Shown: positions 20,186 to 63,649 of the stretch, one piece after another
Position numbering within the stretch: position 1 is the first letter of the stretch
Layout: each line of letters opens with the position of its first letter
Origin: Antedon mediterranea
Lineage: Eukaryota > Animalia > Echinodermata
DNA length: 64,000 nt
Assembly (NCBI RefSeq): GCF_964355755.1
Contig: NC_092676.1
Location: forward strand, 18,060,871-18,124,870
Reading direction: 5' to 3'
Translations under genes and position numbers: made by a program
The notes under the pieces: model-generated
What the model saw: only the letters and a program-made list of their open reading frames with translations
Databases searched by the model: none
Told to the model about the DNA's origin: nothing

Positions 20186-21170
20186 TTAACGGTTTGTTTT
20201 TTCGCTTGAACACGTATATATGATCGTGTACAGATACGGATTAACTGCCGAGTTGATCGGTAAAATGAAGGTTGCTGCCCAAACATATATTTCTGCAGGG
20301 ATATCCCAATGTTTAGTTTCCGAGCAAATTCCCATTAAAATGATGGGAAACCAGCAACAAAAATCTGTACCAATTATAAACACTAGCTTCCGTGCAATTC
20401 GCAACTGTTCTTCAAGGCTTTTCCTTCTATTAACAGTCGCTGATGATCTTTTCACAGAAAAAAATATTGTGAGATAACTAACGACCATGACCAAGAAACC
20501 GAAACCGTTAAATGCAATGAAGATAGCAGTGGCATACTCCCAGCCTGGTAAATGACTTCGAGTTAGCGGTAACGGAAGGCAGACACTCTGTTTACCATAG
20601 TAGTTCTCTCCAAAGTAAGGCAGGTCGATGAAGCTCAACTTGTTTGCAGCTACCGGTAAGAAACTGATAGCAGCAATAACAACCCAAGCAATGACGATGA
20701 CTATTTTGCATGTTTTACGACTGAGACGTCTAGTGTTAAAAGGACTAACAATGTTTACAGCCCGGTCGACGCTCATAACCATCAACGTAAACACCGAGCA
20801 TTCACTGGAAAGAGTAGAAATAGCACCTGCAAAACTGCAAGTGAAACTACTTTTCCAATATTCTAGAACTTCCGAGTATCTACCTCTATAGTGAATATCA
20901 GCCCCTGCAATAATTAGCAGATACATTGCCATAAGTAGATCAGAGATGGCAAGACTGGAGATCAGCATGGAATCAACAGTTTTCTCTTTATTGCAACACC
21001 TTGATATGAGAACAAGTGCATTGCCAATAATGGAGGAAACACCAATTACGAGCATCAACACCCTAAGCGATTTCCTTTTTAGTAAATCTTGGCATGATGC
21101 GAAAGCATCAGTGGGTTCACAGATCTCAATGTCACCAACAACACAACACAAATGGAAAAAATCTGAATAG
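20186..21170 (-). CDS. Terminal hinge + 7TM exon of copy A (rhodopsin-class, LGR/GRL101-like)
   Basis: ORF 20186..21151 extends to an acceptor at 21171 (tttcattcag). Motifs: YSDFFHLCC hinge, [29 protein letters not shown]; very short C-terminal tail. Confidence 0.95.
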
Positions 21171-30100: not shown

Positions 30101-33100
30101 CATTGGTGCAAATGAGGCTAAAGGCCACCCGCTGGGTTGTTAATTGGATTACCCTCATAAAATAACTGGCTATCCTTGGATTTACTTCTAAATCCAAGCA
30201 GCAATAATTGTCCAGAAAAAAAACATCATCCGGACATAATTGAGCGTTCACATCCAAATTATGGCGAGATCATGTAGATAATCTACTTAAATTAACTAGC
30301 CATCTCCTACGAAGCTCTTCCATACACACTTCGAGAGCGATCGTCAGCTGGTGCTGTCCTTGTTGGTATAGACCGCTTAGTGGGCCTAGCTGGTCGGGGA
30401 GCCGCTGGTCGGTGGTGTTTCCGTCGTGTAACATTGGGCTCAAATTCTTCGTCAATGAGTAAAATAATGGTCGTCAGGAGAAGGCATATTTCGGCAGGAT
30501 TATCGGCGTTAAGAGGCATAAGGTTTGTCGCAAGGATAAGCAGTGTATATTAGGCCATTTGGAATGATTAATGTTTAAGTTAAATGCCTTCAGTTGATTA
30601 TGTTGCTATCAACTTTGATTAATGAATTGTGAGTAATAATAATGCAATAAGTACAAAACATACTTACAAGTATTGCAAATTGTTCAATCCATGAAATATA
30701 TCAGCTGGTAAATTACTAATTTGGTTGCCCCACAAATATCTGCAAAAATAAAAAATGAACAACATTCAAAAGTGAAGTTTGACTACTTTATATGCTACCC
30801 ATAGTTTCACTATTTTGTTTCTTTAGTTTATTTAACATAATTTTTTATCCAACTTTTAAAATTTATGTATGATCTTGTTTAGGGAAAGTATATAAAAAGA
30901 AAGTTGAAAAATTAATGTTTTTATTTAACATGATTAACTTAAATTAATCATTTCACAAAAATTTTACAAATGTTATAATAAATTACAATTATTGCTATTC
31001 ATCATCATCACAAACAGGGCACTTAAGACTTCTCCAATCAGAGAGATTATTAGCCAAAGTGTAAATAGACTTATTAGGTTATATGCATTATCATGCATAT
31101 AACCTCTTGATTCTGTCAAAATCTTTATTTATTTATCTATTTATTCTTTCCTTAGCACTATTTTGTCCGTGAATTATCTTGATATCAGTTTCATCTATCT
31201 AAGTCAATTTTTCAGAGTATATTCCTTATGGCCAGGAATCGATGTGGTTATGTTTTCAGGGTGCGCAATCAAACATTACGCGGTCTACGCGCGATTTAAC
31301 GAAATCACGTTTGTAATCATATCTTCACAAGCATGAATCACTTTTAAACAAAATTTGGTACTCATAAATTTCAGGTCATATTTCATAATATGGCAATACA
31401 ATTACGTGCGTAGCGCATATAACGCATGCGTACGCGCGCTTAAAATGTTGAAAATTGTCAGAATTTATTTTCGATGAAATTAGAGTACGTTTCAGGCAAT
31501 TTCAAGCGTTTAAAAAATTGCCATGAGTGCGCAGATTTTTGCACGCGCACTGCGCGTCAAACGTTAATGCGCACTTTTTTTGTCCGATTACTGTTGTATA
31601 ACCTTTCTTTAATAATATCATCATATTTTATTCACTTTTCAACACGAAACAGCGTTATACGAGCACGTCTAAAGTGACAGTCTACGCACGTGTAAGTTAA
31701 CAAAATGGTGAAAATATGCTAAATTTTTAAATTAATATATATCGTTAGAATGCTCGGGAACACCTATTTTTTATTTCATTTTCTTGAAGTGTATGTATCA
31801 TATGTATGATTTATTATGAAATTAGGAGAAAAAAAGTTGATTAAGTCATCATTAATGGTATATTAAATAAAAAAAAATTAATTATGACAATCAATCAAAT
31901 TATAACATTTTCTTAGGCCGAAATAACAAACTTAACATTAACTTTCTTCCTTAAGAAGTTCATATATTAAAGTTAAAAGTATATAGTTTGACAGTGCATC
32001 ATTTTTTTAAATTTTTAAAAATGTCATCATAGTAAAACATTATAATTCATTGCGGTATGTAATAATCTATCTGCACCAAAGTGGTTACTGCATAGTAAAT
32101 ACACGGAGGAATCTTTCCATAACTTTAGTCAGTTGTGTATGGCTCGATGGTCTTTGCTCGTGTCTATGGCATTCAAGGTACCGAGATCGAGTCTCACCTT
32201 GGGAAACGAAATAAGATTTTTTTTTTTATTATCTGTATTGTTTGTTCAAATTTATTTCTTAGTGTATAGATTATACACATGATTTGTAATGAAATCTAGA
32301 TAAAAAGTAACTTATGTCTTTATTAATATGTAACAACAAATGTGGTTTATGAAATTTTACGCAGAGGGATCTTTGATCGGATTGTGATACCGGCTATTGT
32401 ATTCGCGTTAGCAAGATCCTATCATATATTATAAATAATTAAAGATTCTGAGAAAAAAAAATCAATCAATATATCTTAAATCAATCAATTATCTTTATTT
32501 AAATCAATGCATATAACCTATAATTCGTCATAGTGACGAATTAAATCTAGTTTATTTTTTCTTTTCTATCATTTTCTATAATTTTTCTTCTCTTTATAAC
32601 TCTGTTCCATTTTTCCTCATTTGTGCTGTTATATAAATCTATATTTGTTATTATATTAGGCCATTTGGAATAATTAATGTTTAAGTTAAATGCCTTCAGT
32701 TGATTATGTTGCTATCAACTTTGATTAATGAATTGTGAGTAATAATAATGCAATATGTACAAAACATACTTACAACCATAGCAAATTGTTCAATCCATCA
32801 AATATATCAGCTGGTAAATTACTAATTTGGTTGTCATCCAAATATCTGCAAAAAAACAAAAATAAACAACATTTAAAAGTGAAGTTTGAATACTTTATAT
32901 GCTACCCATGGTTTCACTATTTTGTTTTCTTAGTATATTTTAACATAATTTTTTATCCAACTTTTGGAATTTATGTATGATTATTTTGTTCAGGGAACTT
33001 AACATTGCAAGTTGAAACAGAATTCATATCTTATAAAAGAGAGCACTGTGAATATGTCCATTAAATACAATAATTTGTTTCATTGTGGTTAAAATCAACA

Positions 33101-36100
33101 CATCAAAAATATTTGATTTATATGAAAATAATGTTGAAAAATTAATGTTTTTTGTTTAATATGATTAACTTAAATTAATCATTTCAAAATAATTTTACAA
33201 ATGTTATAATAAATTGCAATTATTGCTATTTATCATCATCATCACGTACACTGAACGTCATGTGACATAGTGCACTTTTAAGTCTTAAAAGACTTCTCCA
33301 ATCAGAGAGATTATTAGCCGAAGTGTACATAGACTTATTTATTTTTTCTTTTCTATCATTTTCTATAATTTTTATCCATGTGGTTCTAGGTTGTTCTCTT
33401 CTGTCATTGATTCAGATAGAGCTCCTTGTGCTGGGATATCAGAGTCTAGACAAAGAAGGTGTCCACACCATGTCAAGCGTCTTCTCTTTATAACTCTGTT
33501 CCATTTTTCTTCATTTGTGCTGTTATATAAATCTATATTTGTTATTATATTAGGCCATCTGGAATAATTAATGTTTAAGTTAAATGCCTTCAGTTGATTA
33601 TGTTGCTATTAACTATGATTAATGAATTGTGAGTAATAATAATGCAATAAGTACAAAACATACTTACAATCCTTGCAAATTGTTCAATCCATGAAATATA
33701 TCAGCTGGTAAATTACTAATTTGGTTGTTATCCAAAGATCTGCAAAAACAAACAACATTTAAAAGTGAAGTTTGACTACTTTATATGCTACCCATAGTTT
33801 CACTATTTTATATTCTTTAGTTTATTTTAACATAATTTTTTATCAAACTTTTAGAATTTATGTATGATTATTTTTGTTCAGTGAAAACTTGTAACATTGA
33901 AAGCTGAAACAGAATTCATATCTTACAAAAAAAATATTGAACATTTATCAATTCATGAAATATATTTGTTGGTAAATTACTAATTTGGTTGCTAGTCAAC
34001 CATCTGCAAAAATAAAATGACCAAAATTTAAAATTTAAATTTCTCTACTTTATGTTAGACATAGTTTCACTATTTAGTTTTCTTTATTTTATCTTCAAAT
34101 AATAAACATTTTTTATAACTTTTTAACAGAATTCATATCTTAAAAAAGAGAACACTGTGAAAATTTGTTTCACTTTTGCTAAAACCAATGCCTTAAATAT
34201 ATTTTATTTACATGAAAAGAGTGTTGCAAAATTTTCTTTAATCATTTCACAATTAATATGCAATTTTTTTTTTTTGCGCAACTATTTCCGTATTAATGAA
34301 TTTAGAGTAATAATAACTATTATATTATAAAACACACGAATACAACGTTTGCATCAAATACATCAGCTGGGCATTTCCATGAGAAATGGACAAAAATGTA
34401 CATGACCTGAAAATTTAATTCTCAAAATATCATATATGTTACTAGCAGTAACCTGTGTTCCGCACGGTCTTTTTCTGCCTTAATATGTTGTTATATACTT
34501 TGCATGGACAAGTATAATAACAACGCACTTTGATAAAAGTACTCTGACAAATTATTAAAATGAAAACGAATTGTATCACGAATAAAATTCAGAACTACTG
34601 TATTTACGGCCATTGGTTTGTTATACACTATCCCTTCACTTTAAAATACTATGTAGCTGTGCTTTGTAAATTAGATGATGCGCACAAACACATAACGAAA
34701 GTATAAAAATGACAAACTATATTATTTTAGGTGTTTTTCGTGTTGTATTAATTATTTGATACGTACAGATAAAAAAAAAAGTGGACAAAAATCGAATGAA
34801 ACACACATTGCTGCAGAAACACGAATTGTTAAGTTTTATTTTATATATATTGTTATATTTTTTTTATTTTTATTTCATTGGTTTTGATATTTTGCAATTT
34901 TTTTCAATGGCAGATTTGTTACGTACTTGCTACTTTTGTAATTAAATTTTGGTCTACCAGAAGCCGTGCTCTGCATGGTTTGTCTACCTTAATAATAATT
35001 TGCATGGCATGATTATTAAGTATAATAAAAGTGTACTTTTCCCGGCCACAATATTTCTTTTCGTACATAAGTTGGGGACCCCTCATGAGACGTCACAAAA
35101 TCAACATGAATATTCCTTAATCATGTCCATAAGCTGTGACGTTAGAAATGAGCTAACTGGGCTTCGAATTCTATGAGCAAGTTCTTTTTACTTTATAGTG
35201 ACAGAGATTATTTAGAGGGTTAGGTTTAGTTATATTTAGAAACTTAAGTAGTTTGGCTATCTTTCACATAAGGGGCCAAACTTCCGTACAAAAAAAAAAT
35301 CGCTTCCCAGCCCCTGACAAATTGGTTTTTTTTTAAACAAACAAATTGTCAACAATACAATTCGGAACTATGTACGGCCTGCCGCCATTGATTTTGTTAT
35401 ACACGGAGTATTCCTTTACTTTGAAATATCTGTAAGCTACAAAATGAAATACTGGATTTGGGGTGCGCCTCAGAAAGTGACAACGTGCATGAGCGGAACA
35501 GACTTGAACGTCCATATCAGGCACGTTGAAGTCTGTCAATCAGTCGGCAGAGATTAAAACATCATAAAATATGAATTAATAATAATAATAACGATTTACA
35601 CACGTGGGCTTACGCTTTTTTTGCTTATATAAAAAAAAAATGTTAGCCTAGCGTTGCATGCTCCAAGCACGGTTCCAAGCATGCTTACCGACGCAACATT
35701 TGGTGTCCTATTGTTACATCGGTAAATAACAGCAAATGCACCTCAGCGCAAACAAAACCAATGCTCTTAATTTTACAAAAATAGTAAAATAATAATGTTT
35801 AATATACTAATTAACAATGTCCTAAACAAAACTATTGTGGCATAATGTTTACCCTGGCTACGAGCCATAACAAGATTGGATTGTTGTCGGTGTCACATCC
35901 TAGCACGTTTTGTTACATCCAGTGATTTGTAAAAGTCGGAGGCTGGATGGAAATCTATAGTGTTACTGTTATCGCAGTTCAAGAATTGATTCTCCATGGA
36001 GAGGGAACCAACATGATGGCGGCTGCAATCGACCAATCAGATATGCGATATGCCCTACGCAGTACGCACTACGCCTGTGTTGAGCATATCTGCATGAGAA

Positions 36101-39100
36101 CGATGCGCAACGCAGCGCGTTAAGCATATGAACGCGAACGCATTCTATATGATCCTCGTCAAAGGTCAAAATTAGAAGTTTTTTGACAGTTTTATGATTT
36201 TTATTACATTAGAACAAATACAAACAACTACTTTGCGAGTAAATTGAGACCACAATTATCACTTTTTGACCAGTGGTTGATGAGATATTCATATGGCCAA
36301 TTTCTTGACCAGTGGTCAGAAAAGAGTTTCTGTCCACTTTTGGCAACAAATTACCCATTAGAGTGAATAGAAATATGGGTCTTCTGAGTAGTTTGGCACA
36401 AAAATATTCCAATACACCCAGTAGTTACCAAGTTACGCAGAGTCCTGACTTTGACCATATTGACCTTTTGGCCCCTGTACTGACCAAGCATTCCAATTTT
36501 TTTTCGGCCAACAGCAAAAAATTGATTTGTATAGATATAAGGAAGCAAAAAAACATTGTTAACATACTTTGCTAGAGGGTGCACGTAAACCCTTTCTGGC
36601 TCTCCAACTAAATATATTACCAATGGCATTTAACCGATTATTTAAATTTTGTGGTAAATTACTCTCATACTATTTTTAATTGGTTTATTTATTTTTTTGG
36701 CAGAAAGAGGCCAACAACACTGTATTGCATTGTCAGCTGGTATGATATAGCTTATTACTTTATTGGTCTTAAAATCAAAGAGGCAATCAATAACTTTTCA
36801 AGATTGGATTCGAGACAATTATAGTTTCATGAAAAGGAAAATACACTACTTACTGCAAATAGAAAAACAAATTATGCAGTTCAGGGCTATTGTTAGGATA
36901 GATAAATATGAACTTCTTAGAGTGTTAAAATATAGAAAATTAAAATGTTCAAATAATAACCTCAGTTGACAGTTTACCATTTTACTTTTAACAAAGTGAA
37001 TCACCTGGCTTATATTTTAGGTCACATCTAAGAACTCTGATACTTCATGCAAAACAACACATACAAAACAACACATACAAACTGAGTGAAAACATTCTGT
37101 TGTTTTAGAGAAAAAAAATTATTGTTATAACACACTATAATAGGTAAATTTAAACTTACATCCATTGAAGACTTGATAAATTATTATCCTTAAAGATATT
37201 TAAAGCCCTCTCATCATACTCTTGCAGCCACCTATGAAATAATAAAATAAAACAATTTGTCAAAAACTAAACAAATTTATTATTGTCTTGAAAACTGATC
37301 ATGATGATGAGCCTGATATTTTTGTGGGGACACAAACATCAGTTCCATCATTACAATTATGGACAATTTAATATTGGTGGTATAATACATACAAGAACAA
37401 TTGAAAACTATCTTTGGGCATCTTCTTATTAACTATTTATCATTTGGGAAAGTTAAATGTTGATTTTATTTCACATACTTTTTCCAATGATAATGAAATA
37501 TGAGAGGGTAAAAACTTACCTGTATAATTAGTGTTCGCTGTAAATTCAGTTTACTTATTAATTACACATACTTAGGCAATCTAACTAACAACAGGACGCT
37601 GAGCTTGACTTGCCAACATATGCTATCATAACGAACGTGTATTGAAATGATGTCAACCTTCATTTTGACAATGTTGACATTAAAATGTATAATAAAATCA
37701 GATGATGTTTATACTCACTTTATTGTTATGTTTCACCAAAAGCTGCCTCTTATATACATACCTTAATGTACACATTTATTAATTTATATTGAAAGTGGGA
37801 AGGGTTTTGTATATTAAAGCAAGGCTATCAATAAGTGTGCGGATTATGGATGGTACCGTTTTGGTACCCACAGATCAGTCAAGCGTATATTTTCTGATAT
37901 TACATAACATCAGATAATTATCAGATATTATTCTCTAATTCTTTAATTTGTATTTATATTGGAAACACAACTAGTAATTCTTTTAATATTAAGCCTATAT
38001 TATATGATTTGAGAAATTGTAGGAAAGAAACTTGCTGTTGGTGAATTAGCAATACTGAAGGAAACTAGCAGTAAGAAGACATTGAACATCTTAGTTAGAA
38101 TAGCCAAGGTAGTAAATTAATGTATATTATAAAGACATCAAAAGTGTCAAAAAAGAACCCTGAGTTGAATAGAACAATCAGGCTTTCAACTCATGAACAT
38201 TTTCAATAAAACTATAAAACATTCACAACACATTATATTCTTAAATAAATTTAGATTAATTAATCTGTCACTTAAATGTTGAATCGATGTGCATGTTGTA
38301 AAGTACTAGACATCTATTAGAGACAAAAATACTTTGATCTGTGTTCTGTTTCTACAAACCTGTTGCAAAGTACTAGACATCTATTAGAGACAAAAATACT
38401 TTGATCTGTGTTCTGTTTCTATAAACCTGTTGCAAAGTACTAGACATCTATTAGAGACAAAAATACTTTGATCTGTGTTCTGTTTCTATAAACCTGTTGT
38501 AAAGTACTAGACATCTATTAGAGACTAAAATAATTTGAATTGTGTTATGTTTCTATAAACCAAAGTGATTAAAGCACTTGACACAACCAACAACCAAGCC
38601 CACAAAATTCACTAAATATTTGTAGAATAATGGAAATGGAAACTATTTCAAAATTTTGATTGATTGTAAATTTACCTTTATGTGTTGCATGAATGCTAGT
38701 ACTAGGAGTGTCAAGAATCATTAGCACTGTATACTTACATGAATTCTAAAGGCTTATAATTATTCATCTTCGTGATCAATGCTGTTATGTCACTCCATGG
38801 TACTGTTCTCTTCTCACATATGATGTCAAAATAATAATTGCTATATTGATCATCTATATCATAACATATGCAATCAATTGGACATTCTGAGGTTAAAACA
38901 CAAATGTTAGATAAATATTTGAAAAAATAGAACTTTACATAAGAAGCATAGGGATGGTATTGCCCTGATTATGTGTATAGATGGAAGCCAAATTGAACCA
39001 TGTTATTTATCAAGTAACACAAGCAGACACTGAAGATATTAGGAAGTGGAGAAATGTCAATTGAGATGTTAACATTCTTGCTATTTTTTTGCCATTCTGG

Positions 39101-40316
39101 TTGGCCATAGAAACAGAAATTGAGCTAAAAAAAACAATGTTAAAGTGAAATCCTTAATCAGACATTAAACAAAAAATCATTTGAATATCATTACATTTCA
39201 AATATATATTTTTTATTTTTGCTGTTTTATTTATTCAGTTGAAAATTCCATGGACACCTTATACTGTATGCCAGTATAAAGGAAGTCATTAAATTGTATT
39301 AAAAGTTAGTAATAGAAACCACGAAAGAAATCAGTCAATACTAAATACGAGCATTAAGCAAGTATAAGGTTCATTAAACTTACTGATTTCACAATGAAGA
39401 CCAACATATTTATCAGGACAAACACATGTATCATTTGACATGTGACATGTACCTCCATTCTGACATGGATTGCTGTTACACATAGTATCATCAGTTCCTA
39501 ACAAAATAAAACAAACTGTTAAAGTGAGAATTACACACACTATCTTTGATTATAATATTTCTATATACCACAGCCTATACTTTACTATACAGTATATTCT
39601 ATTCAAGTTAATAGACTTTTTCATTGAATTCAATCTAAAAGAGCCAATCTCATTTTAATACAAAAAAAAGAAAGTATGGTAATTGAGTCTAAATTGACAT
39701 GTAGGCCTACTAAAGTGATAACTTTGTCAAAGTGTAGATACTCAGAACGAATGAAAAGTAAATTATGAAGAAACTCAAAAGAACTTTACATACTTTATTT
39801 AAAGGTAATCAATATTACAGTAAATTGTACAATTCATTTTCCAAATAACAAAATAAAATGCTATAAAATAATAAACGTAATTGATTGAAGACTAAAGTTT
39901 TAAGGGGTTATTCACCAATTAGAAATCTTTTTACCACTTATTTACGGCTAGTCCAGTAAAAATTGTGAATTTACTACATAACAAGTAACGACTACATAAT
40001 AGACATGCATGTTATTGCTTAAACATAGTTATGGGACCTACAGATAATATGATCAAACAAAACCTGCTAACCACAAACTTTTATCTGTATAAATAACATC
40101 TTCCAATTTAAATTTCAAAGAAAACAATTTTGTTATAAAACTTTTGTAAAGAATATCAAACAACACAAAAAAAAACATTAAAAAAAATTTGTTCTCAAAC
40201 AGTCGATTAATCCTACTCATGCTGCTACACAATCAAAATAAATGAATCATACCATTTGTGGAACAACTACACAATTTGAATCCAACAAAAATTATAATGC
40301 ACTGCAAGGTAAACAT
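20186..40316 (-). CDS. Complete multi-exon EGF-LRR-7TM receptor, GRL101/LGR-like GPCR (copy A, ~797 aa)
   Basis: Exons with AG/GT borders and consistent phase: 40316-40253 (signal peptide [21 protein letters not shown]), 39497-39384 (EGF), 38886-38739 (LRRNT, CPIDCIC...C), 37231-37160 (LRR1). Then 12 x 72-nt cassettes: 33739-33668, 32845-32774, 30739-30668, 28919-28848, 28062-27991, 27043-26972, 26148-26077, 25284-25213, 24424-24353, 23531-23460, 22775-22704, 22548-22477. Then 22147-22073 (75 nt), 21709-21638 and 21170-20186 (7TM). Sum is 2394 nt = 798 codons including the stop. Confidence 0.85.
27259..27328 (-). pseudogene. Donor-less LRR pseudo-exon
   Basis: Acceptor intact; reads [23 protein letters not shown] deletion removed the exon 3' end and the GT donor. 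Confidence 0.8.
29390..29640 (-). mobile_element. RTE-like non-LTR retrotransposon 3' ORF fragment (representative copy; recurs in most cassette introns)
   Basis: Translation [11 protein letters not shown]...[13 protein letters not shown]...RPKTTW matches the C-terminal pattern of RTE-clade ORFs (W..I.N..L, RRL.W.GH, RP..TW). Confidence 0.75.
31074..32550 (+). mobile_element. Helentron/Helitron2-like non-autonomous element
   Basis: 5' hairpin aggttatatgcat/atgcatataacct; the same motif is inverted near the 3' end; then stem-loop taattcgtca-tag-tgacgaatta and CTAG. Inserted without TSD into gactta|tttatt. Confidence 0.8.
33927..34003 (-). pseudogene. Damaged LRR exon ([23 protein letters not shown]); native donor lost
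   Basis: The homolog in copy B (63578-63649) is intact. Here the exon is fused via an A8 run to an intronic cttac, giving 77 nt (out of frame). Confidence 0.7.
38295..38560. repeat. 67-bp minisatellite (4 copies)
   Basis: Homolog of 4245-5838, much shorter. Confidence 0.92.
39384..39497 (-). CDS. EGF-like domain exon (copy A)
   Basis: 114 nt, phase 1-1, [31 protein letters not shown]. Confidence 0.9.
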
Positions 40317-51652: not shown

Positions 51653-52637
51653 TTAACGGTTTGTTTTTTCGCTTGAACACGTATATATGATCGTGTACAG
51701 ATACGGATTAACTGCCGAGTTGATCGGTAAAATGAAGGTTGCTGCCCAAACATATATTTCTGCAGGGATATTCCAATGTTTAGTTTCCGAGCAAATTCCC
51801 ATTAAAATTATGGGAAACCAGCAACAAAAATCTGTACCAATTATAAACACTAGCTTCCATGCAATTCGCAACTGTTCTTCAAGGCTTTTCCTTCTATTAA
51901 CAGTCGCTGATGATCTTTTCACAGAAAAAAATATTGTGAGATAACTAACGACCATGACCAAGAAACCGAAACCGTTAAATGCAATGAAGATAGCAGTGGC
52001 ATACTCCCAGCCTGGTAAATGACTTCGAGTTAGCGGTAACGGAAGGCAGACACTCTGTTTACCATAGTAGTTCTGTCCAAAGTAAGGCAGGTCGATAAAG
52101 CTCAGTTTATTTGCAGCTACCGGTAAGAAACTGATAGCAGCAATAACAACCCAAGCAATGACGATGACTATTTTGCATGTTTTACGACTGAGACGTCTAG
52201 TGTTAAAAGGACTAACAATGTTTACAGCCCGGTCGACGCTCATAACCATCAACGTAAACACCGAGCATTCACTGGAAAGAGTAGAAATAGCACCTGCAAA
52301 ACTGCAAGTGAAACTACTTTTCCAATATTCTAGAACTTCCGAGTATCTACCTCTATAGTGAATATCAGCCCCTGCAATAATTAGCAGATACATTGCCATA
52401 AGTAGATCAGAGATGGCAAGACTGGAGATCAGCATGGAATCAACAGTTTTCTCTTTATTGCAACACCTCGATATGAGAACAAGTGCATTGCCAATAATGG
52501 AGGAAACACCAATTACGAGCATCAACACCCGAAGCGATTTCCTTTTTAGTAAATCTTGGCATGATGCGAAAGCATCAGTGGGTTCACAGATCTCAATGTC
52601 ACCAACAACACAACACAGATGGAAAAAATCTGAATAA
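51653..52637 (-). CDS. Terminal hinge + 7TM exon of copy B
   Basis: 985 nt, same length as in copy A and nearly identical. Amino-acid changes seen in the ORF track: E->Q, R->W, D->N. Confidence 0.95.
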
Positions 52638-55600
52638 CTGAATGAAAAGAAATAGGATAGTTATATATTCATAATTGATAATTGTAAAGTGTAAATAGCT
52701 AATTGCTAATTTCAAAAAGTGTAAATAGCTAATTTCAAAAAGTGTAAATAGCTAATTTCTAATTTAAAAAAATGTAATATTAGCCGTTTTTTCTTGCCAG
52801 CATGTATTTATTATATGGAATTCTTTTTTTATATAGAATACAATTTTCCTTGTTTCAGCAGTACAGCTGGGTCAACATTTTCTATCATGACTCGTCTTTA
52901 CAGACACATTCCATTATTGTTCCGGCCTTTTCACTGAGATTGAGAAGTTCACACGTATGAATTCTTCTGATAACTTTTTAACCACTTGTTACATTTGAAA
53001 ACAAAAGTGAATCTGTAAAATTGGTATTAAATGGCATTTAAATACAAAATCAAAGAGGGACAACAGATCACACCACCCTACATACAGCCATTTGCATTCA
53101 TAATGTCAAATAAATTTACTTACAACTCTGTTAAATTTACCAACTCTTTAAAAGTCTTTTCTTCATAATCTTTCAAGTTGTTGTATGTTAGGTTTCTGTA
53201 GGATAATAAATTCAGAATGATCATATTCATTTAATAATAACTTTAAATTCACATGTCATGAGGAAACTTTCTGAATGATTGAAATCAAAACAGTATTGGG
53301 TTTGGTTTACTAGCATTCCTGCTCCCAAAAGTCATCCATTCATAGAAGCACTGATGAAGAAAGTCTATCCATGGTGGCCATAGAATGGTCCTCAAACATA
53401 CTTTGGCTTTAGTTGATAGAAGTTTGAAACATTTTATTAGAAATAGAGTATATGTAAGTTATAAACTTTGTGGCAATGACAATGTTTACAAAAAGCTGAA
53501 TGTGCATTAGAGGCAAGAATACAAGCAGGTGTCTTACAATACAGATTATGAACTTACAGAATTAAAAGTGATGAAGCAAATGGAGAAAATGCACCATCCT
53601 CTATGTTAGTTATAGAGTTGTTCTGTAACTGTCTGTTAACAAATTAACAACAAAAATTATGATCCTAAATTTAGTTATTTCAGGACTGAAGATGATCAAC
53701 TGCAATTGCCTTTATTGGTATTTACTGCTCTGTCACAGTACTATATTATTCAATGTAATCAACTAAAGTACATGTTTTAAAGATACAGTATACTGTCCCA
53801 CTGTAAAAATGAATTTACTATTAATCTTTGTTAAATATGCCATTCTAATGTCACATAATAGTAATCATCAGTCATTGAAATTTTAAAATAAATAACAATT
53901 ATTACTATCAACTATGATTAATGAATTAAGAGTATAACACAATACGTACAAAACATACTTACAATCTTTGCAAATTGTTCAATCCATGAAATATATCAGC
54001 TGGTAAATTACTAATTTGGTTATAAGCCAAATATCTGCAAAAACAAAAAATGAACAACATTTAAAAGTGAAGTTTGACTATTTTATATTTTACCCGGTTT
54101 CACTATTTTGTTATCTTTAGTTTATTTTAACATAATTTAATAAGCAAAAGTACATATAAGGGCACTATACTGTATTTCATTAGTGATACATATATCAATC
54201 ATATTGATTGAATTATTAGTGTCTATGATTCATGCACCTTTCTGACCATTGATCATTCACTAGAGCACTGTTAATATGTCCATTAATACAACATCTGTAT
54301 CATTTTTTATAAAGCCAACACATTAAAAATATTTCATTTATGTAAAAATAATGTTTCAAATTTATAGTTTTTGTTTAATAATAACACAATACGTACAAAA
54401 CATACTTACAATATTTGCAAATTGTTCAATCTATCAAATATATCAGCTGGTAAATTTCGAATTTCATTACCATTCAACAATCTGAAAAAAAAAAAAAATT
54501 TACCACATTTAAAAGTGAAATTTGTCTATTTTATCACCCATGCTTTTACTAAATTTGTTTTCCTTCGTTTATTTTAACATACTTTTTAAGGCAAATTTGT
54601 ATGATAATTTATGTATGATAATTTTGTTCAGTTCTTTTTGTTATTATATTAGGCCATCTGGAATGATTAATGTTTAAGTTAAATGCCTTCAGTTGATTAT
54701 GTTGCTATAAACTATGATTAATGAATTGTGAGTAATAATAATGCAATAAGTACAAAACATACTTACAAGACTTGCAAATTGTTCAATCCATGAAATATAT
54801 CAGCTGGTAAATTACTAATTTGGTTGTCATCCAAATATCTGCAAAAACAAAAATAAACAACATTTAAAAGTGAAGTTTGTCTACTTTATACTACCCATAG
54901 TTTCACTATTTTGTTTTCTTTAGTTTATTTTAACATAATTTTTTATCCAACTTTTGGAATTTATGTATGATTATTTTGTTCAGGGTAAACTTTGCAAGTT
55001 GAAACAGAATTCATATCTTATAAAAGAGAGCACTGTGAATATGTCGATTAAATACAACAATCTGTCTCATTTTGGTTAAAATCAACACATTAAATTTTTT
55101 ATTTATGAAAATAATGTTGCAAATTAAATTTTTTTGTAATATGATTAATATTACTTAAATAGACGATTCACAATTATTTTGTAAATGTTACAATAAATTT
55201 CAATTCTTATTTTCAACTATGATTAATGAATTGTTAGTAATAATAATACAATATGTACAAAACATACTTACAATATTTGCAAATTGTTCAATCCATGAAA
55301 TATATCAGCTGGTAAATTACTAATTTGGTTATTATACAAATATCTGCAAAAACAAAAATGAACAACATTTAAAAGTGAAGTTTGTCTACTTTATATTACC
55401 CATGGTTTCACTATTTTGTTTCTTTAGTTTATTTTAACATAATTTTGTATCCAACTTTTGGAATTTATGATCTTGTTTAGGGTAAACTTAACATTGCGAG
55501 TTGAAACAGAATTCATATCTTATAAAAGAGAGCACTGTGAATATGTCCATTAAATACAATAATTTGTTTCATTGTGGTTAAAATCAACACATCAAAAATA

Positions 55601-58600
55601 TTTGATTTATATGAAAATAATGTTGAAAAATTAATGTTTTTGTTTAATTTGATTAACTTAAATTAATCATTTCACAATTATTTTACAAATGTTATAATAA
55701 ATTCCAATTATTGCTATTCATCATCATTAAGTCACTTTTAAGTCTTAAAAGACTTCTTCAATCAGAGAGATTATTAGCCAAAGTGTACATAGACTTATTT
55801 ATTTTATCTTTTTGCATCATTTTCTATAATTTTTATCCATGTGGTTCTAGGTTGTTCTCTTTTGTCATTGATTCAGATAGAGCTCCTTGTGCTGGGATAT
55901 CAGAGTCTAGACAAAGAAGGTGTCCACACCATGTCAAGCGTCTTCTCTTTATAACTCTGTTCCATTTTTCTTCATTTGTGCTGTTATATAAATCTATATT
56001 TGTTATTATATTAGGCCATTTGGAATAATTAATGTTTAAGTTAAATGCCTTCAGTTGATTATGTTGCTATCAACTTTGATTAATGAATTGTGAGTAATAA
56101 TAATGCAATATGTACAAAACATGCTTACAATCTTTGCAAATTGTTCAATCCATGAAATATATCAGCTGGTAAATTACTAATTTTATTGTCCCACAAATAT
56201 CTGCAAAAATAAAAAATGAACAACATTTAAAAGTGAAGTTTGTCTACTTTATATGCTACCCATGGTTTCACTATTTTGTTTCTTTAGTTTATTTTAACAT
56301 AATTTTGTATCCAACTTTTTAAATTTATGTTTGATCTTGTTTAGAAGTATATAAAAAGAAAGTTGAAGAATTAATGTTTTTATTTAACATGATTAACTTA
56401 AATTAATCATTTCACAATAATTTTACAAATGTTATAATAAATTGCAATTATTGCTATTCATCATCATCACGAACACTGAACGTCATGTGACATAGTGCAC
56501 TTAAGACTTCTCCAATCAGAGAGATTATTAGCCAAAGTGTACATAGACTTATTTATTTTATCTTTTTGCATCATTTTCTATAATTTTTATCCATGTGGTT
56601 CTAGGTTGTTCTATTCTGTCATTGATTCAGATAGAGCTCCTTGTGCTAGGATATCAGAGTCTAGACAAAGAAAGTGTCCACACCATGTCAAGCGTCTTCT
56701 CTTTATAACTCTGTTCCATTTTTCTTCATTTGTGCTGTTATATAAATCTATATTTGTTATTATATTAGGCCATTTGGAATAATTAATGTTTAAGTTAAAT
56801 GCCTTCAGTTGATTATGTTGCTATCAACTATGATTAATGAATTGTGAGTAATAATAATGCAATATGTACAAAACATACTTACAAGACTTGCAAATTGTTC
56901 AATCCATGAAATATATCAGCTGGTAAATTACTAATTTGGTTGTCCCACAAACCTCTGCAAAAAAAAAACATGAACCATATTCATTAAAAGTGAAATTTGC
57001 CCACTATTTATGCTACCAATTTGCATCATTTTCTATAATTTTTATCCATGTGGTTCTAGGTTGTTCTCTTCTGTCATTGATTCTGATAGAGCTCCTTGTG
57101 CTGGTATATCGTAGTCTAGACAAAGAAGGTGTCCACACCATGTCAAGCATCTTCTCTTTATAACTCTGTTCCATTTTTCCTCATTTGTGCTGTTATATAA
57201 ATATATATTTGTTATTATATTAGGCCATTTGGAATAATTAATGTTTAAGTTAAATGCCTTCAGTTGATAATGTTGCTATCAACTTTGATTAATGAATTGT
57301 GAGTAATAATAATGCAATACAGTAGAACCTCCATTTTACGTACGGTACGGGACCGAAAGGCGTACGTAAAACAAAGGATTCGTAAAATCAAGGTTGACCT
57401 TAAATTGACCCCAAATACGTAGAGATCGTAGCTATAAAGGCTACCCTGTTTGTCTACTTTACTGAACAGCATGCAGGTTGTCACTAGCTAGGCCTTGCCT
57501 AGACTATTCAGGCCAGGCTAGCAGGCCTAGCAAGATGTGAGGCCTAACTAGAAAAGTACAGTACTGTACAGTATATACAGGCTGTGAGATGTTTAAATAA
57601 AGTGTAAAATATCAATGTTCTTGTATTTTCTATCAATAAAAACAGTCGCTGCTTAAATGCACGTGCGTAGCTTGTCTCAAACACACAGCAGAATTCCACA
57701 CACACAGCCACAGCTTTGTTGTTGTGCTTTGTTGTTGTGCTTTGTTGTTGTTAAATTGCGCCCTCAATGTAAGAAAATGATGACGTCATCGGTTATTTTA
57801 AGCGTACGTAAAATCAAGGGAACGTAAAATCAGGGTACGTAAAACACAGGTTCTACTGTATGTACAAAACATACTTACAATCCTTGCAAATTGTTCAATC
57901 CATGAAATATATCAGCTGGTAAATTACTAATTTGGTTGTCCGACAAATCTCTGCAAAAATAAAAAATGAACAACATTTAAAAGTGAAGTTTGACTACTTT
58001 ATATGCTACCCATGGTTTCACTATTTTGTTTCTTTAGTTTATATCAACATAATTTTGTATCCAACTTTTAAAATTTATGTTTGATCTTGTTTAGAGAAAG
58101 TATATAAAAAGAAAGTTGAAAAATTAATGTTTTTATTTAACATGATTAACTTAAATTAATCATTTCACATAAATAAATTGCCTAAAACAGGTGCAAGTGG
58201 GGATCCCATTGACACACCGTCTATTTGATCATAAATATCACCATTGAATTTGAAATTGGTTTTTTCCGTAGCAAGTAAAAACAATTTGCGTAAATCGCTT
58301 TTGTTTAAGCTCATATTATAATTGACATCATTAGTGATATAGTCAACAGCAATGTCAATGCATTCAAACAGGGGGATGTTCGTGAACAAACTAACAACAT
58401 CAAATGACACCATACATTTGTGTGTCAACATGTTGGATTTCCTTCACAAATGTGAATGAATCAGTCGCCACATATTGATTGATTGCACCTGTTTTAGCCA
58501 ATTTATTTATGGGTCATCATGAACAAACATGGTTAAAGAACTTCTCACAAGCTTCGGTCATGTTTTACCGTCGTTATGTTGATGACATTTTTTGTTTATT

Positions 58601-61600
58601 CAATACAAAAGATGATGCAAATACTTTCTTTGACTATATTAACGATCAGCACCCCAACATAAAGTTCACAATTGAATGAGATTGACCATCGTCTTCCATT
58701 TTTAGATATAATTTTAAACAATAATGGTTCTTCTGTCATAACTTCGGTCTTCAGAAAGCCTACCTTCACGGGTCTCCTAACTAATATTAACAGTTTCAAT
58801 TCCTTTTCTTACAAAATTGGGCTTGTTCGTACTTTGATTGACAGAGTTTACAAATTGAATCATTCCTGGTCTAGCTTTAAAAACAATGACATTTCAACTC
58901 TTAAAACCATTTTAAGTAAAAACTGTTTTCCACTCAGTATAATAGAGAGGTTTCGCAATCTTACGAATACGATAACGAAAACGGATACGTCACGCACACG
59001 TATTCGTTTTCGTAAGCCAGTAAAAAATCTGTTTCGCATGACAACGAAATATTGAGGGCGCCGTCTAAACCATGAAAAAAAATTGATTATGTTGCTATTA
59101 TTATCTATGATTAATAATTGTGAGTAATAATAATGCAATAAGTACAAAACATACTTACAACACTAGCAAATTGTTTAATCCATGAAATATATCAGCTGGT
59201 AAATTACTAATTTGGTTGTCCGACAAACCTCTGCAAAAATAAAAAATGAACAACATTTAAAAGTGAAGTTTGTCTACTTTATATGCTACCCATAGTTTCA
59301 CTATTTTGTTTCTTTAGTTTATTTTAACATAATTTTGTATCCAACTTTTTAAATTTATGTTTGATCTTGTTTAGAGAAAGTATATAAAAAGAAAGTTGAA
59401 GAATTAATGTTTTTATTTAACATGATTAACTTAAATTAATCATTTCACAAAAATTTTACAAATGTTATAATAAATTCCAATTATTGCTATTCATCATCAT
59501 CACGAACACTGAACGTCATGTGACATAGTGCACTTAAGACTTCTTCAATCAGAGAGATTATTGGCCAAAGTGTACATAGACTTATTTGTTCTAAAATTTT
59601 TATCCATGTGGTTTTAGGTCGTGTCTTGACTTTTCTCATTGATTCAGATAGAGTTCATTGCGCTGGGATATCGTAGTCTAGATGAAGAAAGTGTCCACAC
59701 CATGTCAAGCGTCTTCTCTTTATAACTCTGTTCCATTTTTCCTCATTTGTGCTGTTATATAAATCTATATTTGTTATTTGGTTGTCCCACAAAAAAAAAC
59801 ATGAACCATATTTAAAAGTGAAATTTGCCCACTATATACACTACCAATGGTTTTGTCTACTTTATATATTACCCATGGTTTCACTATTTTGTTTTCTTTA
59901 GTATATTTTAACATAGTTTTTAAGCCAATCTTTTATGATAATTTATGTATGATTATTTTATTCAGGGAAACTTATAACATTACAAATTGAAAAATAATTC
60001 ATCATATCTTACAAAAGAGAGCACTATGAATATCTTGTTATAATTTGAGTAAGAGAAAAGGGGTTTGTTATAAATTTTATATTAAATTACAATTATTAAT
60101 GAATATAGAGTAATAGTAAGTATCTATATATAAATTTACGTAAGGGCAAAATTCGGTAAATCGCGCCTTACTTCTAGAATTTTCACTCGATGGTATGTAA
60201 AGTTGGTTCGTACTTTCGGTACTTATTTTAACCGCCTGATGTAACCCTGTTTACTAATTAAATTGAGTTAGATAATTAGTTATTGACGATTAAAACGAAT
60301 TTAGGTTCAAAGATTTTTTTCCGATCGTGGTATACACTGTCTAATGGATGTCCATCTTGAAAAATACCCGCCAAAAAAATGCGAGGAGGCTTCGCATTTT
60401 TCTATCTCCTCCTACGATAATTGTTTTTAATAGCTGAAAACCGGTTGAACAGCTAGAGTACACCATCATAATGTTGAAGACAGGCCGATTTTCTTTAAAA
60501 AATACTATTTTGATAGATTTAATATACGATTATACAAATGTATTGATTTGCGATGAATGGAACATCCCAATCTCTCAGTCTGCCAGAGTTGGTTTAACAC
60601 AAGTACTGTAGGTAAATTTATGAGCCCTTGGTTTAACACATACGGTAGGTAAATATATGGGCCCTTTGAGAATAAACTTGCAATACTTTGACAATACTGT
60701 AAATACCTATTAACTATTTTTCATTTGAATCGAACATTTCTTACTGTGAATGTTTGTACTGTTAGATGTAATATAAAAATATATACAAATAAACTTTATT
60801 ACTGAGACTGTGGATAGGCTCTACTGTTAGATATACAAATAAACTTTATACTGACAGTTCCTTCTCAACGTTTGTATTAATTAATAATTACCAAAAATAT
60901 AAACGTCGTAGTGGTGTATCGTGACATGTACTTTAATATTTCAATCGATTATGACAGTGACAATTTTAACAAAGTATTAAATCGCAAATGTTTTAGGCCT
61001 ACTGTATTTAGAGGTATATTATTTATAGGCCTATAAAACATGAACAAAATATTTCGTTACTCAGTGGATAAAGAATATATTTAAAAATTGTTCCTCTTTG
61101 TACCTATCCGCTTTCTCATCCCTCAACCCTAATGTTACATAGCGAGGAGGCTTCGCATTTTCCTATCTCCTCCTACGATAATTGTTTTTAATAGCTGAAA
61201 ACCGGTTGAACAGCTAGAGTACACCATCATAATGTTGAAGACAGGCCGATTTTCTTTAAAAAAATACTATTTTGATAGATTGCTAGAGTACACCATCATA
61301 ATGTTGAAGACAGGCCGATTTTCTTTAAAAAATACTATTTTGATAGATTTAATATACGATTATACAAATGTATTGATTTGCGATGAATGGAACATCCAGT
61401 AGTTTGGTTTAACACAAGTACTGTAGGTAAATTTATGAGCCCTTGGTTTAACACATACGGTAGGTAAATATATGGGCCCTTTGAGAATAAACTTGCAATA
61501 GGTTCCGAAAATGTTAAAAACCAATTTCTATTATTTGAATCGGTAAACAGTTTCCATTTATTATACATTGATAATGAAACATGAAATATTCCTATTTATG

Positions 61601-63649
61601 TCCCTCGAGGTTCATTTCTTACTGTGAATGTTCGTACTGTTAGATGTAATATAAAAATATATACAAATAAACTTTATTACTGAGACTGTGGATAGGCTCT
61701 ACTGTTAGATATACAAATAAACTTTATACTGACAGTTCCTTCTCAACGTTTGTATTAATTAATAATTACCAAAAATATAAACGTCGTAGTGGTGTATCGT
61801 GACATGTACTTTAATATTTCAATCGATTATGACAGTGACAATTTTAACAAAGTATTAAATCGCAAATGTTTTAGGCCTACTGTATTTAGAGGTATATTAT
61901 TTATAGGCCTATAAAACATGAACAAAATATTTCGTTACTCAGTGGATAAAGAATATATTTAAAAATTGTTCCTCTTTGTACCTATCCGCTTTCCCATCCC
62001 TCAACCCTAATGTTACATAGCGAGGAGGCTTCGCATTTTCCTATCTCCTCCTACGATAATTGTTTTTAATAGCTGAAAACCGGTTGAACAGCTAGAGTAC
62101 ACCATCATAATGTTGAAGACAGGCCGATTTTCTTTAAAAAAATACTATTTTGATAGATTGCTAGAGTACACCATCATAATGTTGAAGACAGGCCGATTTT
62201 CTTTAAAAAATACTATTTTGATAGATTTAATATACGATTATACAAATGTATTGATTTGCGATGAATGGAACATCCAGTAGTTTGGTTTAACACAAGTACT
62301 GTAGGTAAATTTATGAGCCCTTGGTTTAACACATACGGTAGGTAAATATATGGGCCCTTTGAGAATAAACTTGCAATAGGTTCGGAAAATGTTAAAAACC
62401 AATTTCTATTATTTGAATCGGTAAACAGTTTCCATTTATTATACATTGATAATGAAACATGAAATATTCCTATTTATGTCCCTCGAGGTTCATTACAATT
62501 TATATTTAGTAGTCCCACGGACTTCATCTTAGCCACTCCCCCGAGTGCTAAGGCCAAATTTATGATACCCTACTTTCTATGTAGTTACAGTTAGTTCTTG
62601 ACGATAATAATAATACAACGAATTTAGGTTACACCCTTCGGCCGCGAAAACGTTTCTGTACAAATATGATACCGATTGGCTTTATTTCATTCAACAGCGA
62701 CCATAATCTCGGCAATTACAGGATAGATAAACTATTTTATTATTGATGTGCTTATAAATTAAGACTCATGTAAACAGCTTGATTACATCATTTTACAGAC
62801 AAACGAAACTTTTTTAAACCTACTGTTTCAATAACTGAGTATAATACTGTATACGTTTTCATAAGTGCATATACATTTTCGTGTTTTCATTGACGAGATT
62901 GTAATAGTAACTTCAGTAACTATTACAGTACTTATTTATTATACGACACAAGACAATTGTATCTGACAGGTACGTACATTATTCTAAAAAATAAGTCTAG
63001 ATAGATCCCTTAGGCGTCATAAATCACAGGCCAACAAATCAGTACTCATGACAGAAATTCGACCCAGTTTGGTTCACACAAATGTTTACAGGAAGTTCAA
63101 CACCACAACCGATGATTTGCCCTAAATATTTAGGTAGACTACAGTTTAATTTTTCACTGAATAGGAGCTTGAATTTCCGATTTCCATTTCGCAGAATGTC
63201 TAGGTCTATTTATTTAGTTTGGTTCTTATAATATATAAATACAATCAACTTTATTACTGCGGTTCCATCACCACCACCACGTGCTGCCGCCCAATTCCCG
63301 TACATACATTTCCATTTCTCCCTAATTTCTTTAATCCACATAAATTAATTGTCCTTTATGGAATCCAGTATTGGTTTTGTTGTCTCTATTTCTGAATACC
63401 CCAATTAGGGGGACACTTCCGTTTTTGTTTAGTGTCCCAAAAAAGTCCCCGTCCGTGGATTCTACTGTATTCGAGAACCATCTGTGAGCACCCCTAGATG
63501 GTACGCGAGCGAAGCGAGCGTGCCATCTAGTTATTACAAGTATAAGTAATAATACAATAAGTTCAAAACATACTTACAATGATTGAACATTTATCAATTC
63601 ATGAAATATATTTGTTGGTAAATTACTAATTTGGTTGTTATTCAACCAT
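51653..63649 (-). CDS. Copy B of the LRR-7TM receptor, 3' part (5' exons lie beyond the window)
   Basis: Exons: 63649-63578; cassettes 59230-59159, 57950-57879, 56954-56883, 56200-56129, 55343-55272, 54838-54767, 54481-54410, 54034-53963; then 53632-53558 (75 nt), 53195-53124 and 52637-51653 (7TM). All introns are phase 2. Confidence 0.85.
57320..57858. mobile_element. Tc1/mariner-superfamily (pogo/Tigger-like) MITE
   Basis: TA TSD; 24-bp TIR cagtagaacctNNNttttacgtac; empty site gcaatatgtac in sibling cassettes. Confidence 0.92.
58169..59080. mobile_element. Penelope-like RT fragment with internal inversion
   Basis: Minus 58478->58169: DSFTFV, SFDVVSLFTNIP, QIDGVSMGSPLAPVL. Plus 58479->~58950: APVLANLFM, YRRYVDDIF, IKFTIE, LPFLD, VFRKPT. 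Confidence 0.88.
60123..63530 (+). mobile_element. Non-autonomous Helitron with internal ~878-bp tandem repeats
   Basis: A|TC 5' end; 3' hairpin ctagatggtacgc...gcgtgccatCTAG|T; internal repeats start at ~60382, 61142 and 62020. Confidence 0.82.

Follow-up and report, generated by a model that had tools for sequence, protein, structure and literature searches.

Gene organization of the locus

The window that was analysed, a stretch of 64 kb from Antedon mediterranea, carries tandem LRR-GPCR genes of the GRL101/RXFP lineage on the minus strand. Three gene copies (0, A and B) are found within it (Table 1), and the order along the gene is EGF, cap, LRR array, two constant LRRs, hinge and 7TM. 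Copy B's own 5' exons fall outside the window, as do further paralogs. The eight cassettes that the original prediction had attributed to copy B were all located on the minus strand, as exons of 72 nt with AG/GT ends, and a ninth, divergent exon (B0) was added. A cassette is a 72-nt exon of phase 2/2 that encodes a single LRR, and together with its intron it forms a unit of about 0.86 kb. All intact LRR exons share this phase and the AG/GT ends, and they are positioned in order inside the gene. The 23 exons tallied comprised 20 intact 72-nt AG..GT exons on a near-identical framework, the intact and divergent B0, and two damaged exons, A0 (damaged donor, 77 nt up to the next GT) and A6 (truncated). 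A pattern of 20 intact exons out of 23 is far beyond chance. No inverted LRR exons were seen within the window, and the open reading frames that recur in the introns of each unit lacked a Pfam match and were not counted as gene parts.

The repeats of copy A match the A. mediterranea RefSeq model P0063, while model P0031 contains two further repeat types that are not present in the window. The possible start codon reads ATA in copy A (position 39543) and ATG in copy 0 (position 7026), and a scan of positions 39498-46000 gave no candidate for an upstream signal-peptide exon of copy A. Given the possible loss of the start and the two damaged exons in copy A, and the broken first LRR exon of copy 0, which has lost its acceptor, some of the copies may be decaying.

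Table 1. Features of the three gene copies, with positions counted from the first nucleotide of the window
Feature	Position	Strand	Remarks
Copy 0, 5' part of third copy	163..7026	-	EGF, cap and 72-nt exons, LRR exon remnant
Copy A, two constant LRR exons and 7TM exon	20189..22147	-	
Copy A, LRR exon array A0-A13	22477..34003	-	12 intact, 2 damaged
Copy A, 72-nt LRR-like exon	37160..37231	-	sets frame into array
Copy A, Cys-rich cap exon	38739..38886	-	LRRNT-like by eye; no Pfam match
Copy A, EGF exon	39384..39497	-	
Copy B, hinge and rhodopsin-class 7TM exon	51656..52637	-	Pfam 7tm_1 E 4.8e-31; best PDB match RXFP1 8e-46; X1 contig ends at acceptor
Copy B, last constant LRR exon	53124..53195	-	72 nt; depth in run X1 equals 7TM level
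Copy B, constant LRR exon	53558..53632	-	75 nt; also in RefSeq models P0031, P0063
B8 (YLAY..QR), last exon of array	53963..54034	-	72 nt, AG/GT
B7 (LLNG..QI), NEIR type, counterpart of A7	54410..54481	-	72 nt, AG/GT
B6 (YLDD..QV)	54767..54838	-	72 nt, AG/GT; acceptor used in RNA contigs (probable RNA run X1)
B5 (YLYN..QI)	55272..55343	-	72 nt, AG/GT
B4 (YLWD..QR)	56129..56200	-	72 nt, AG/GT
B3 (GLWD..QV)	56883..56954	-	72 nt, AG/GT
B-specific insertion, likely DNA transposon/MITE	57318..57860	.	matching 12-nt terminal inverted ends
B2 (DLSD..QG)	57879..57950	-	72 nt, AG/GT
B-specific insertion, reverse-transcriptase fragments in both orientations	58168..59052	.	RVT_1 E 2.9e-5, below curated cut-off
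B1 (GLSD..LV)	59159..59230	-	72 nt, AG/GT
Large block of inserted high-copy repeats, B0-B1 intron	60040..63540	.	very high contig depth
B0, first LRR exon, divergent framework, counterpart of A0	63578..63649	-	

Variation within the LRR exons

The variable sites are the five x positions of the motif LxxLxLxxN, encoded by codons 1, 3, 4, 22 and 23 of the exon; these codons were chosen after the variation had been seen, and coincide with known variable positions of LRRs. In comparisons between exons, pairs of which are not independent, the x positions were 40-45% different and the framework about 1.8%. Among the 20 intact exons, 14 of the 15 nucleotide sites in variable codons were segregating versus 8 of the 57 elsewhere, and tree length per codon reached 16.3 at the variable codons as against 0.77 in the framework, a 21-fold faster change. 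The Leu codon that separates variable codons 1 and 3 was identical in all 20 exons, including its silent positions.

In the AlphaFold model of P0063, a single-sequence prediction, a strand recurs every 24 residues over xLxLx, with pLDDT values mostly between 70 and 92 in the LRR region. Along the beta-strand, whose face is the predicted binding surface, buried leucines and the five variable positions are predicted to alternate. The predicted strand spans the splice junction, so that an altered exon order makes new strands. The 7TM part of the model is of low confidence and whole-chain fold scores, like the match to LGR4 with a low overall TM-score, therefore carry little weight.

Divergence between copies A and B

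The original prediction held that the 7TM exons of A and B differ at a few residues only, and we found three replacement differences in the 982-nt exon, next to eight silent codons and one end base (12 differences in total). It was also right that no B cassette equals an A cassette: when all variable codons are compared, each of the eight differs from every one of the 14 exons of copy A. The closest pair, B6/A11, is 1 nt and one amino acid apart. Positional counterparts could be assigned to B0/A0, which differ at 4 of 72 nt, all in variable codons 3, 4 and 23, and to B7/A7, with 1 difference in the 150 nt upstream and 8 in the 72 nt of the exon; the intron 3' of B8 matches that of A13 (2 of 149 nt differ). 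With 100-nt flanks that were 1.3-1.5% different, the adjacent variable codons differed by 33-42%, which agrees with the proposed combination of a constant signalling module and a variable region. One-to-one orthology of cassettes at flank-level divergence, named beforehand as the observation that would speak against it, was not found.

The near-identity claimed for the intergenic DNA applied to the two intergenic blocks tested (substitutions of 0.7% with 10 gaps in one, and of 1.7% with 7 gaps in the other) and not to three non-array blocks, which differed by 6.6-8.7%. Large insertions also set the two copies apart. Furthermore, a turnover far faster than the age of the duplication could not be established, as exons of A differ from those of B by 0.451 at the variable codons, and exons of a single copy by a similar amount (0.425 in A, 0.397 in B). 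Grouping of the exons by gene was not evident in three measures (permutation p 0.11-0.40), with p 0.036 for the downstream flanks, and five of the eight 3' motifs of B also occur in A. Considering the equal diversity within A and between A and B, the shared 3' motifs and the flank patches of 6.6-8.7%, a good part of the A/B difference is likely to come from a reshuffled shared pool. The exon variants may be older than the A/B split, and homogenisation may have kept the 7TM alike in the two copies.

Windows of copy B match many copy A units in a patchwise manner. Similarity in the upstream flank goes with similarity in the 5' motif (Mantel r 0.33, p 0.002), whereas upstream and downstream flanks were uncorrelated with each other, as were 5' and 3' motifs. 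The downstream flank correlated with the 5' motif (p 0.019) and not with the 3' motif, where a simple crossover model predicts otherwise.

One could suppose that the assembler set two haplotypes of a single polymorphic locus in tandem as A and B, which would make the arrays allelic. Heterozygosity of 0.7-3% is within the range of marine invertebrates, and the divergence of the flanks (0.7-3%) falls in it; in addition, a DNA sample contained two intron types at about equal raw depths of 16.1 and 17.3. We consider this quite unlikely, given that the window holds three gene copies and that the RefSeq models of A, P0031 and P0064, with 99% identical 7TMs, all lie on one 30.6-Mb contig, with B as a fourth. 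Moreover, 7TM variants at about a quarter of the depth (10.9/40.4 and 10.7/41.9) suggest more than two copies in the DNA sample. Even if the copies were haplotypes, the arrays would be hypervariable alleles.

Splicing of the array

None of the runs listed with sequence matches is on record as RNA, and a first read mapping, in which high-copy repeats were dominant, gave no exon joints among the 15 of 248 listed. One run, X1, is probably RNA, since it has junctions at exon ends and most introns have no coverage in it (16 of 30 bins are empty). Three of its six listed joints connect the end of one LRR exon to the end of another, with up to seven letters replaced at the variable ends. These data come from contigs of a single run, in which whole transcripts cannot be phased. 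X1 comes from a different sample and has a distinct 7TM allele (13 differences over 1275 nt). A 7TM allele of this LRR-GPCR subfamily appears to be transcribed. The contigs that join LRR exons to each other indicate that the exons are chained and not strictly mutually exclusive. If 'cassettes' was meant in the sense of single-choice alternative exons, the term fits the X1 contigs poorly, as they point to chain splicing.

A near-identical cassette array with variation at VLR-type positions is what one would expect of Dscam-like mutually exclusive exons or VLR-like somatic assembly, which would leave one or few repeats per receptor. The three array-to-array junctions in the X1 contigs argue against a single array exon per mRNA, each intact exon has both splice sites and is ordered inside the gene, and model P0063 chains 11 exons (A2-A5 and A7-A13), although the latter is a prediction and not proof. 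Both options are therefore very improbable.

Somatic exon skipping has somewhat more in its favour. Any subset of the symmetric exons remains in frame, all intact ones being of phase 2/2 with AG/GT ends, and one gene could thus yield many receptors. The three X1 exon junctions all bring together exon ends that are not neighbours in copy A or copy B, a single 24-residue repeat distinguishes the Anneissia isoforms P0072 and P0076, skipping is known in ROCO genes (PMC11378527) and a full-length product requires the omission of the damaged A0 and A6. However, X1 is another sample and more paralogs exist beyond the window, so that different genomic arrays explain the non-adjacent junctions equally well. 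As the main source of diversity we regard skipping as improbable.

Possible selection on the variable codons

Diversifying selection on the variable codons is plausible. In a codon model with free rates, omega at these codons did not exceed 1 significantly (lnL -221.41 with omega fixed at 1, -221.30 when free), and an omega of 4 or 8 gave a worse fit. Silent change was raised at the variable codons too (pS 0.315 vs 0.032). The ratio of replacement to silent codon changes was 20:2 in the one-to-one ectodomain exons versus 3:8 in the 7TM (Fisher p 4e-4), and the former did not differ significantly from neutral expectation (p 0.16, or 0.064 with A7/B7 included).

An omega indistinguishable from 1 would also fit an unstable repeat in decaying copies, with variation tolerated at exposed sites, the remainder homogenised by conversion and no selection for specificity. 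The damaged exons, the possible start loss and the transposon insertions are in line with such relaxation, and variability at exposed x positions is common to most LRR proteins. Yet tolerance alone cannot give codons 20-30 times more divergence than the adjacent intron, the remaining exposed codons of the framework show hardly any variation, silent sites included, and the apparent transcription of a 7TM allele of the subfamily and the 3:8 ratio of the 7TM between the copies do not suggest decay. We therefore attach little probability to a purely neutral origin.

Relation to known receptor families

LGRs are known as conserved hormone receptors, and one-LRR exons are common. The Antedon genes are LGRs, with an LRR ectodomain, hinge and 7tm_1 in one gene (P0063: LRR_8 E 6e-106, 7tm_1 E 5e-31), and belong to type C (RXFP/GRL101), the 7TM matching RXFP1 (8e-46) better than FSHR (3e-29) in the PDB. 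They resemble the type C2 LGR GRL101 (PMC4079206, PMC6267866) and RXFP1 in this nearest structure, in the NCBI name (GRL101-like) and in the combination of LRRs with a short Cys hinge. They differ in having a 5' EGF exon, no LDLa being found in a six-frame regular-expression search of the window or by Pfam on P0063, and are thus not type C2 in the strict sense. Furthermore, the Antedon LRR array is homogenised and hypervariable, and there are at least 29 Antedon models. In a quick tree without characterised reference sequences, from which 2 of 80 proteins were excluded (7TM match below 230 residues), the clade was sister to LDLa-bearing Antedon proteins such as P0002, and Antedon (29 rows) and Anneissia (10 rows) formed separate expansions. 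Searches by tblastn with distant crinoid homologs recovered the 7TM alone.

Shuffled LRR exons have been described for the ROCO genes of brown algae (Zambounis et al., PMC3341825; Teng et al., PMC11378527). Both systems have one LRR per 72-nt phase-2 exon, variable sites that lie, in Antedon by prediction, on the concave face, inactivated exons among active ones (A0, A6 and the copy-0 remnant in Antedon), and young duplicates that are near-identical save for the LRR region (13 vs 17 exons in ROCO, 12 vs 8 intact ones in Antedon). In contrast, the Antedon signalling module is a rhodopsin-class 7TM and not a ROC-COR GTPase, Pfam detecting no ROC-COR domain in P0063, so that these are not ROCO genes, and they occur in an animal. 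The register of the Antedon exons (xLxxNxL...LxxL) equals that of the ROCO 'type II' exons, for which the ROCO authors saw no shuffling. Inverted LRR exons are another difference, at least for the Antedon window, and positive selection at the concave face was shown for ROCO, whereas in Antedon omega could not be told apart from 1.

The exon profile matched VLR and repebody structures, many of them VLRs. Like lamprey VLRs, the Antedon modules have a typical LRR of 24 residues in which the framework is constant and the xxLxLxx positions vary. A VLR has no 7TM, and it arises by somatic joining of cassettes that lie outside an incomplete gene, whereas the Antedon modules are complete, spliceable germline exons of a GPCR gene that is itself complete; the resemblance is one of convergence. 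In the literature we found no description of such LRR exon shuffling in an animal rhodopsin-class GPCR, and PMC7042368 contains nothing on LRR-GPCRs.

A candidate variable recognition receptor

We consider it probable that these are tandem LRR-GPCRs with chained one-LRR exons, likely recombined by unequal crossing-over and gene conversion, and with a face that is likely kept variable by diversifying selection. Unequal crossing-over and gene conversion would add, drop and recombine exon units, and recombination inside the unit would bring 5' and 3' motifs into new combinations, drawn from a pool that the paralogs have in common. Diversifying selection would then maintain a varied, predicted ligand-binding face on a constant 7TM. 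With their different strings of exons, variable almost solely at five positions of the predicted binding surface, the A/B receptors are likely part of a fast-diversifying recognition system that is built much like the candidate immune receptors of brown algae. If so, an invertebrate deuterostome would use a GPCR for variable recognition, with a hypervariable, modular LRR face and a fixed 7TM, in convergence on the brown-algal ROCO genes and on lamprey VLR chemistry. The genetic mechanism itself is already known from algae.

A further-reaching and rather doubtful option is that the GRL101-derived crinoid GPCRs constitute an anticipatory repertoire, in which a VLR-like face on a G-protein module is diversified by germline recombination of exon units among dozens of paralogs and by in-frame skipping, giving each individual its own immune or self/non-self set. 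Under the favoured reading of recombined and selected exons, we lean slightly towards a fast-changing non-self surface, of a microbe, a parasite or a conspecific, as the putative ligand. The next candidates are chemosensory and reproductive cues.

Gene copies and their LRR exons

Comparison of the window with itself revealed a tandem unit of ~32-34 kb, within which three copies of an LRR-GPCR gene (0, A and B) were recovered. The closest protein relatives of these genes are crinoid 'GRL101-like' models, and the 7TM exons of both A and B match Pfam 7tm_1. A fuzzy exon scan yielded 27 minus-strand matches, comprising 23 array exons, one copy-0 remnant and three spurious hits. The array of copy A holds 14 exons (A0-A13; the A0 donor is damaged and A6 truncated) and that of copy B nine (B0-B8), all nine with intact AG/GT. 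Each exon is 72 nt long and encodes a single LRR, with one leading and two trailing bases that jointly form a Leu codon; since all are of phase 2/2, including or omitting any one of them leaves the reading frame intact. The Antedon mediterranea RefSeq model of copy A (XP_071956026.1, P0063) contains 11 repeats, A2-A5 and A7-A13, each found once in the window.

Features of the cluster and joints in sequencing run X1 (window positions)
Feature	Position	Strand	Remark
Copy 0, 5' part	left edge of window	minus	
Copy A, complete	39.5-20.2 kb	minus	
Copy B, 3' part	63.6-51.7 kb	minus	
55-bp satellite	13301-16112 and 46889-49753		~51-52 copies in each unit
67-bp repeat	4733-5838; 38294-38561		16.5 copies; 4 copies
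Reverse-transcriptase fragment	44277-45248		RVT_1, E 2e-14; second unit only
Insertions	29650-30550 and 31080-32580		confined to copy A array
Near-tandem internal duplication, ~0.85 kb	60452-62494		high-copy insertion block of B0-B1 intron
X1 junction	54838 -> 53963		LRR exon ends
X1 junction	54838 -> 56890		seven letters added, A2-type end
X1 junction	54478 -> 53963		three letters added, A7-type start

The difference in exon repertoire noted earlier is real: none of the eight listed B exons is identical to an A exon (the nearest pair, B6 and A11, differs by one base), whereas the 7TM exons differ at only 12 of 982 nt and three residues. The near-identity claimed for the intergenic DNA held for both intergenic blocks tested (0.7% and 1.7%), but three of the 11 non-array blocks differ by 6.6-8.7%. 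At the minus-strand codon at 51859, near the start of TM6, copy B has a Trp, where copy A, the near-identical-7TM models P0031 and P0064 and the sequencing runs have an Arg; the difference might alter signalling, or it may stem from an assembly error.

DNA runs of one sample contain two intron types of similar depth, and 7TM variants reach roughly one quarter of the depth. A false duplication, in which A and B are alleles, is unlikely to account for everything, considering the three copies in the window and the further near-identical 7TM models on the 30.6-Mb contig that also carries A (P0031 and P0064; one diverged 7TM model lies elsewhere). P0031 carries two repeats without counterpart in the window.

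Several peculiarities were observed at the 5' ends. In copy 0 an ATG (7026, minus) starts a signal-peptide-like hydrophobic stretch ahead of the EGF exon, and the matching position in copy A (39543, minus) reads ATA; this stretch also resembles a splice acceptor. The cap exons of A (38739-38886) and copy 0 (5999-6143) differ by ten replacement codons, one silent codon and a one-codon indel, and the sequence flanking them is likewise more divergent, at about 9%. The first LRR exon of copy 0 (163-235) has lost its acceptor, and a deletion fuses it to the upstream intron.

Location of the variation

Among 20 intact exons (A0, B0 and A6 left out), codons 1, 3, 4, 22 and 23 contain 15 sites, 14 of which segregate, versus 8 of 57 elsewhere. 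When A7 and B7 are left out too (18 exons), the difference at the variable codons is 0.425 in A alone, 0.397 in B alone and 0.451 across the two copies, compared with 0.015-0.018 in the framework and 0.07-0.16 in the flanking intron. Read across the splice junction, these codons encode all five x residues of LxxLxLxxN. Five variable beta-strand/beta-turn residues on the concave LRR face, often ligand-binding, are described in PMC3138743. The AlphaFold model of P0063 places a strand over the variable residues every 24 positions (e.g. 41-45), crossing the exon junction. An exon profile matched VLR and repebody structures (41 sequences, E up to 0.01), which is a likeness of shape and does not imply homology.

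In 10 of 190 (non-independent) exon pairs the upstream 100 nt differ by 1.5% and the adjacent 5' variable sites by 33%; in 45 of these 190 the downstream 100 nt differ by 1.3% and the 3' variable sites by 42%. The positional counterparts show a similar contrast: B0 and A0 differ only in codons 3, 4 and 23, and B7 and A7 at 8 of 72 exon nt versus 1 of 150 upstream nt.

Probable recombination and selection

Windows of B match many different A units patchwise. The 5' motif (the variable residues at that exon end) tracks the upstream flank (r 0.33, p 0.002). The downstream flank correlates with the 5' motif (p 0.019) but not with the 3' motif, contrary to what a simple crossover model would predict; among array exon pairs, neither the two flanks nor the two motifs correlate with each other. 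Five of eight 3' motifs of B are also present in A, versus only one of eight 5' motifs, and no sorting of exons by gene was detected (p 0.11-0.40; downstream flank p 0.036). We infer that unequal crossing-over and short conversion tracts would recombine an exon pool common to the paralogs. This weakens the proposed clock, a turnover far faster than the duplication age: the variants could have arisen before A and B separated, and the 7TM could itself be homogenised, given the 7-9% patches in non-array blocks and the clustering of four of eight silent 7TM changes within five codons.

Most ~0.86-kb exon units also carry a co-amplified fragment (55836-56066 and equivalents), which resembles the terminal part of a non-LTR retro-element ORF; Pfam gave no match to it.

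The replacement:silent ratio is 20:2 in one-to-one ectodomain exons versus 3:8 in the 7TM (p 4e-4); the former does not differ significantly from neutral expectation (p 0.16). The variable codons have a 21-fold longer tree than the framework. Silent change is likewise raised there, and in a codon model of these codons omega 1 fits as well as a free omega, and 4 or 8 fit worse. The interleaved Leu codon is unchanged in 20 of 20 exons, which counts against a general mutation hot spot. Old variants held by selection in short tracts amid a homogenised remainder would yield this pattern, as could local hypermutability. On balance we favour, with moderate confidence, a constant GPCR whose predicted LRR binding face is shuffled in the germline and probably selected.

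Splicing

In X1, a putative RNA run from a sample other than the assembled one, a contig of depth 17.6 stops where the 7TM exon has its acceptor; coverage of the last constant exon is equally deep. Over 53740-57060, 16 of 30 bins have zero depth. Three of the six joints listed connect LRR exon ends, the contigs being placed at an 80% likeness threshold, so that exact motifs are only partly readable; the other three lie inside an intronic retro-element fragment. X1 contigs on the 55836-56066-type fragment derive from elsewhere. These LRR-to-LRR joins support splicing of the array exons as a chain and speak against a strictly mutually exclusive choice. In none of the three are the joined exons neighbours in A or B, which could reflect other paralogs, a different haplotype or exon skipping; the last is annotated in the family, as Anneissia isoforms differ by one repeat.

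Relatives and comparable systems

The solved structure nearest to the 7TM is RXFP1. RXFP1 signalling requires its own LDLa module; no LDLa was found in the window or P0063, so activation would have to differ here. For the same reason the genes, although GRL101-derived, fail the domain definition of type C2 LGRs, as worded in PMC4079206 and PMC6267866. The same LRR exon architecture is known from brown-algal ROCO genes, for which PMC3341825 and PMC11378527 describe near-identical duplicates with recombined LRR regions, positively selected concave sites and alternative splicing. Full-text literature searches, covering the main text of largely open-access papers, found no account of such shuffled arrays in crinoids or any LGR; the expansion could be mentioned in supplementary gene-family tables of echinoderm genome papers.

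Of the matches listed, 79 7TM rows went into a quick tree. An Antedon clade (at least 29 rows) and an Anneissia clade (at least 10) both received 99 there, with Antedon proteins including the LDLa-bearing P0002 as their sister. Two other Antedon members (P0006, P0068) show a milder form of the same repeat pattern. Long LRR-GPCRs (P0007-P0030, P0051-P0059) form a separate clade of at least 25 rows among the matches listed, in which the Amphiura models have about 19-21 repeats, suggesting an independent brittle-star expansion.
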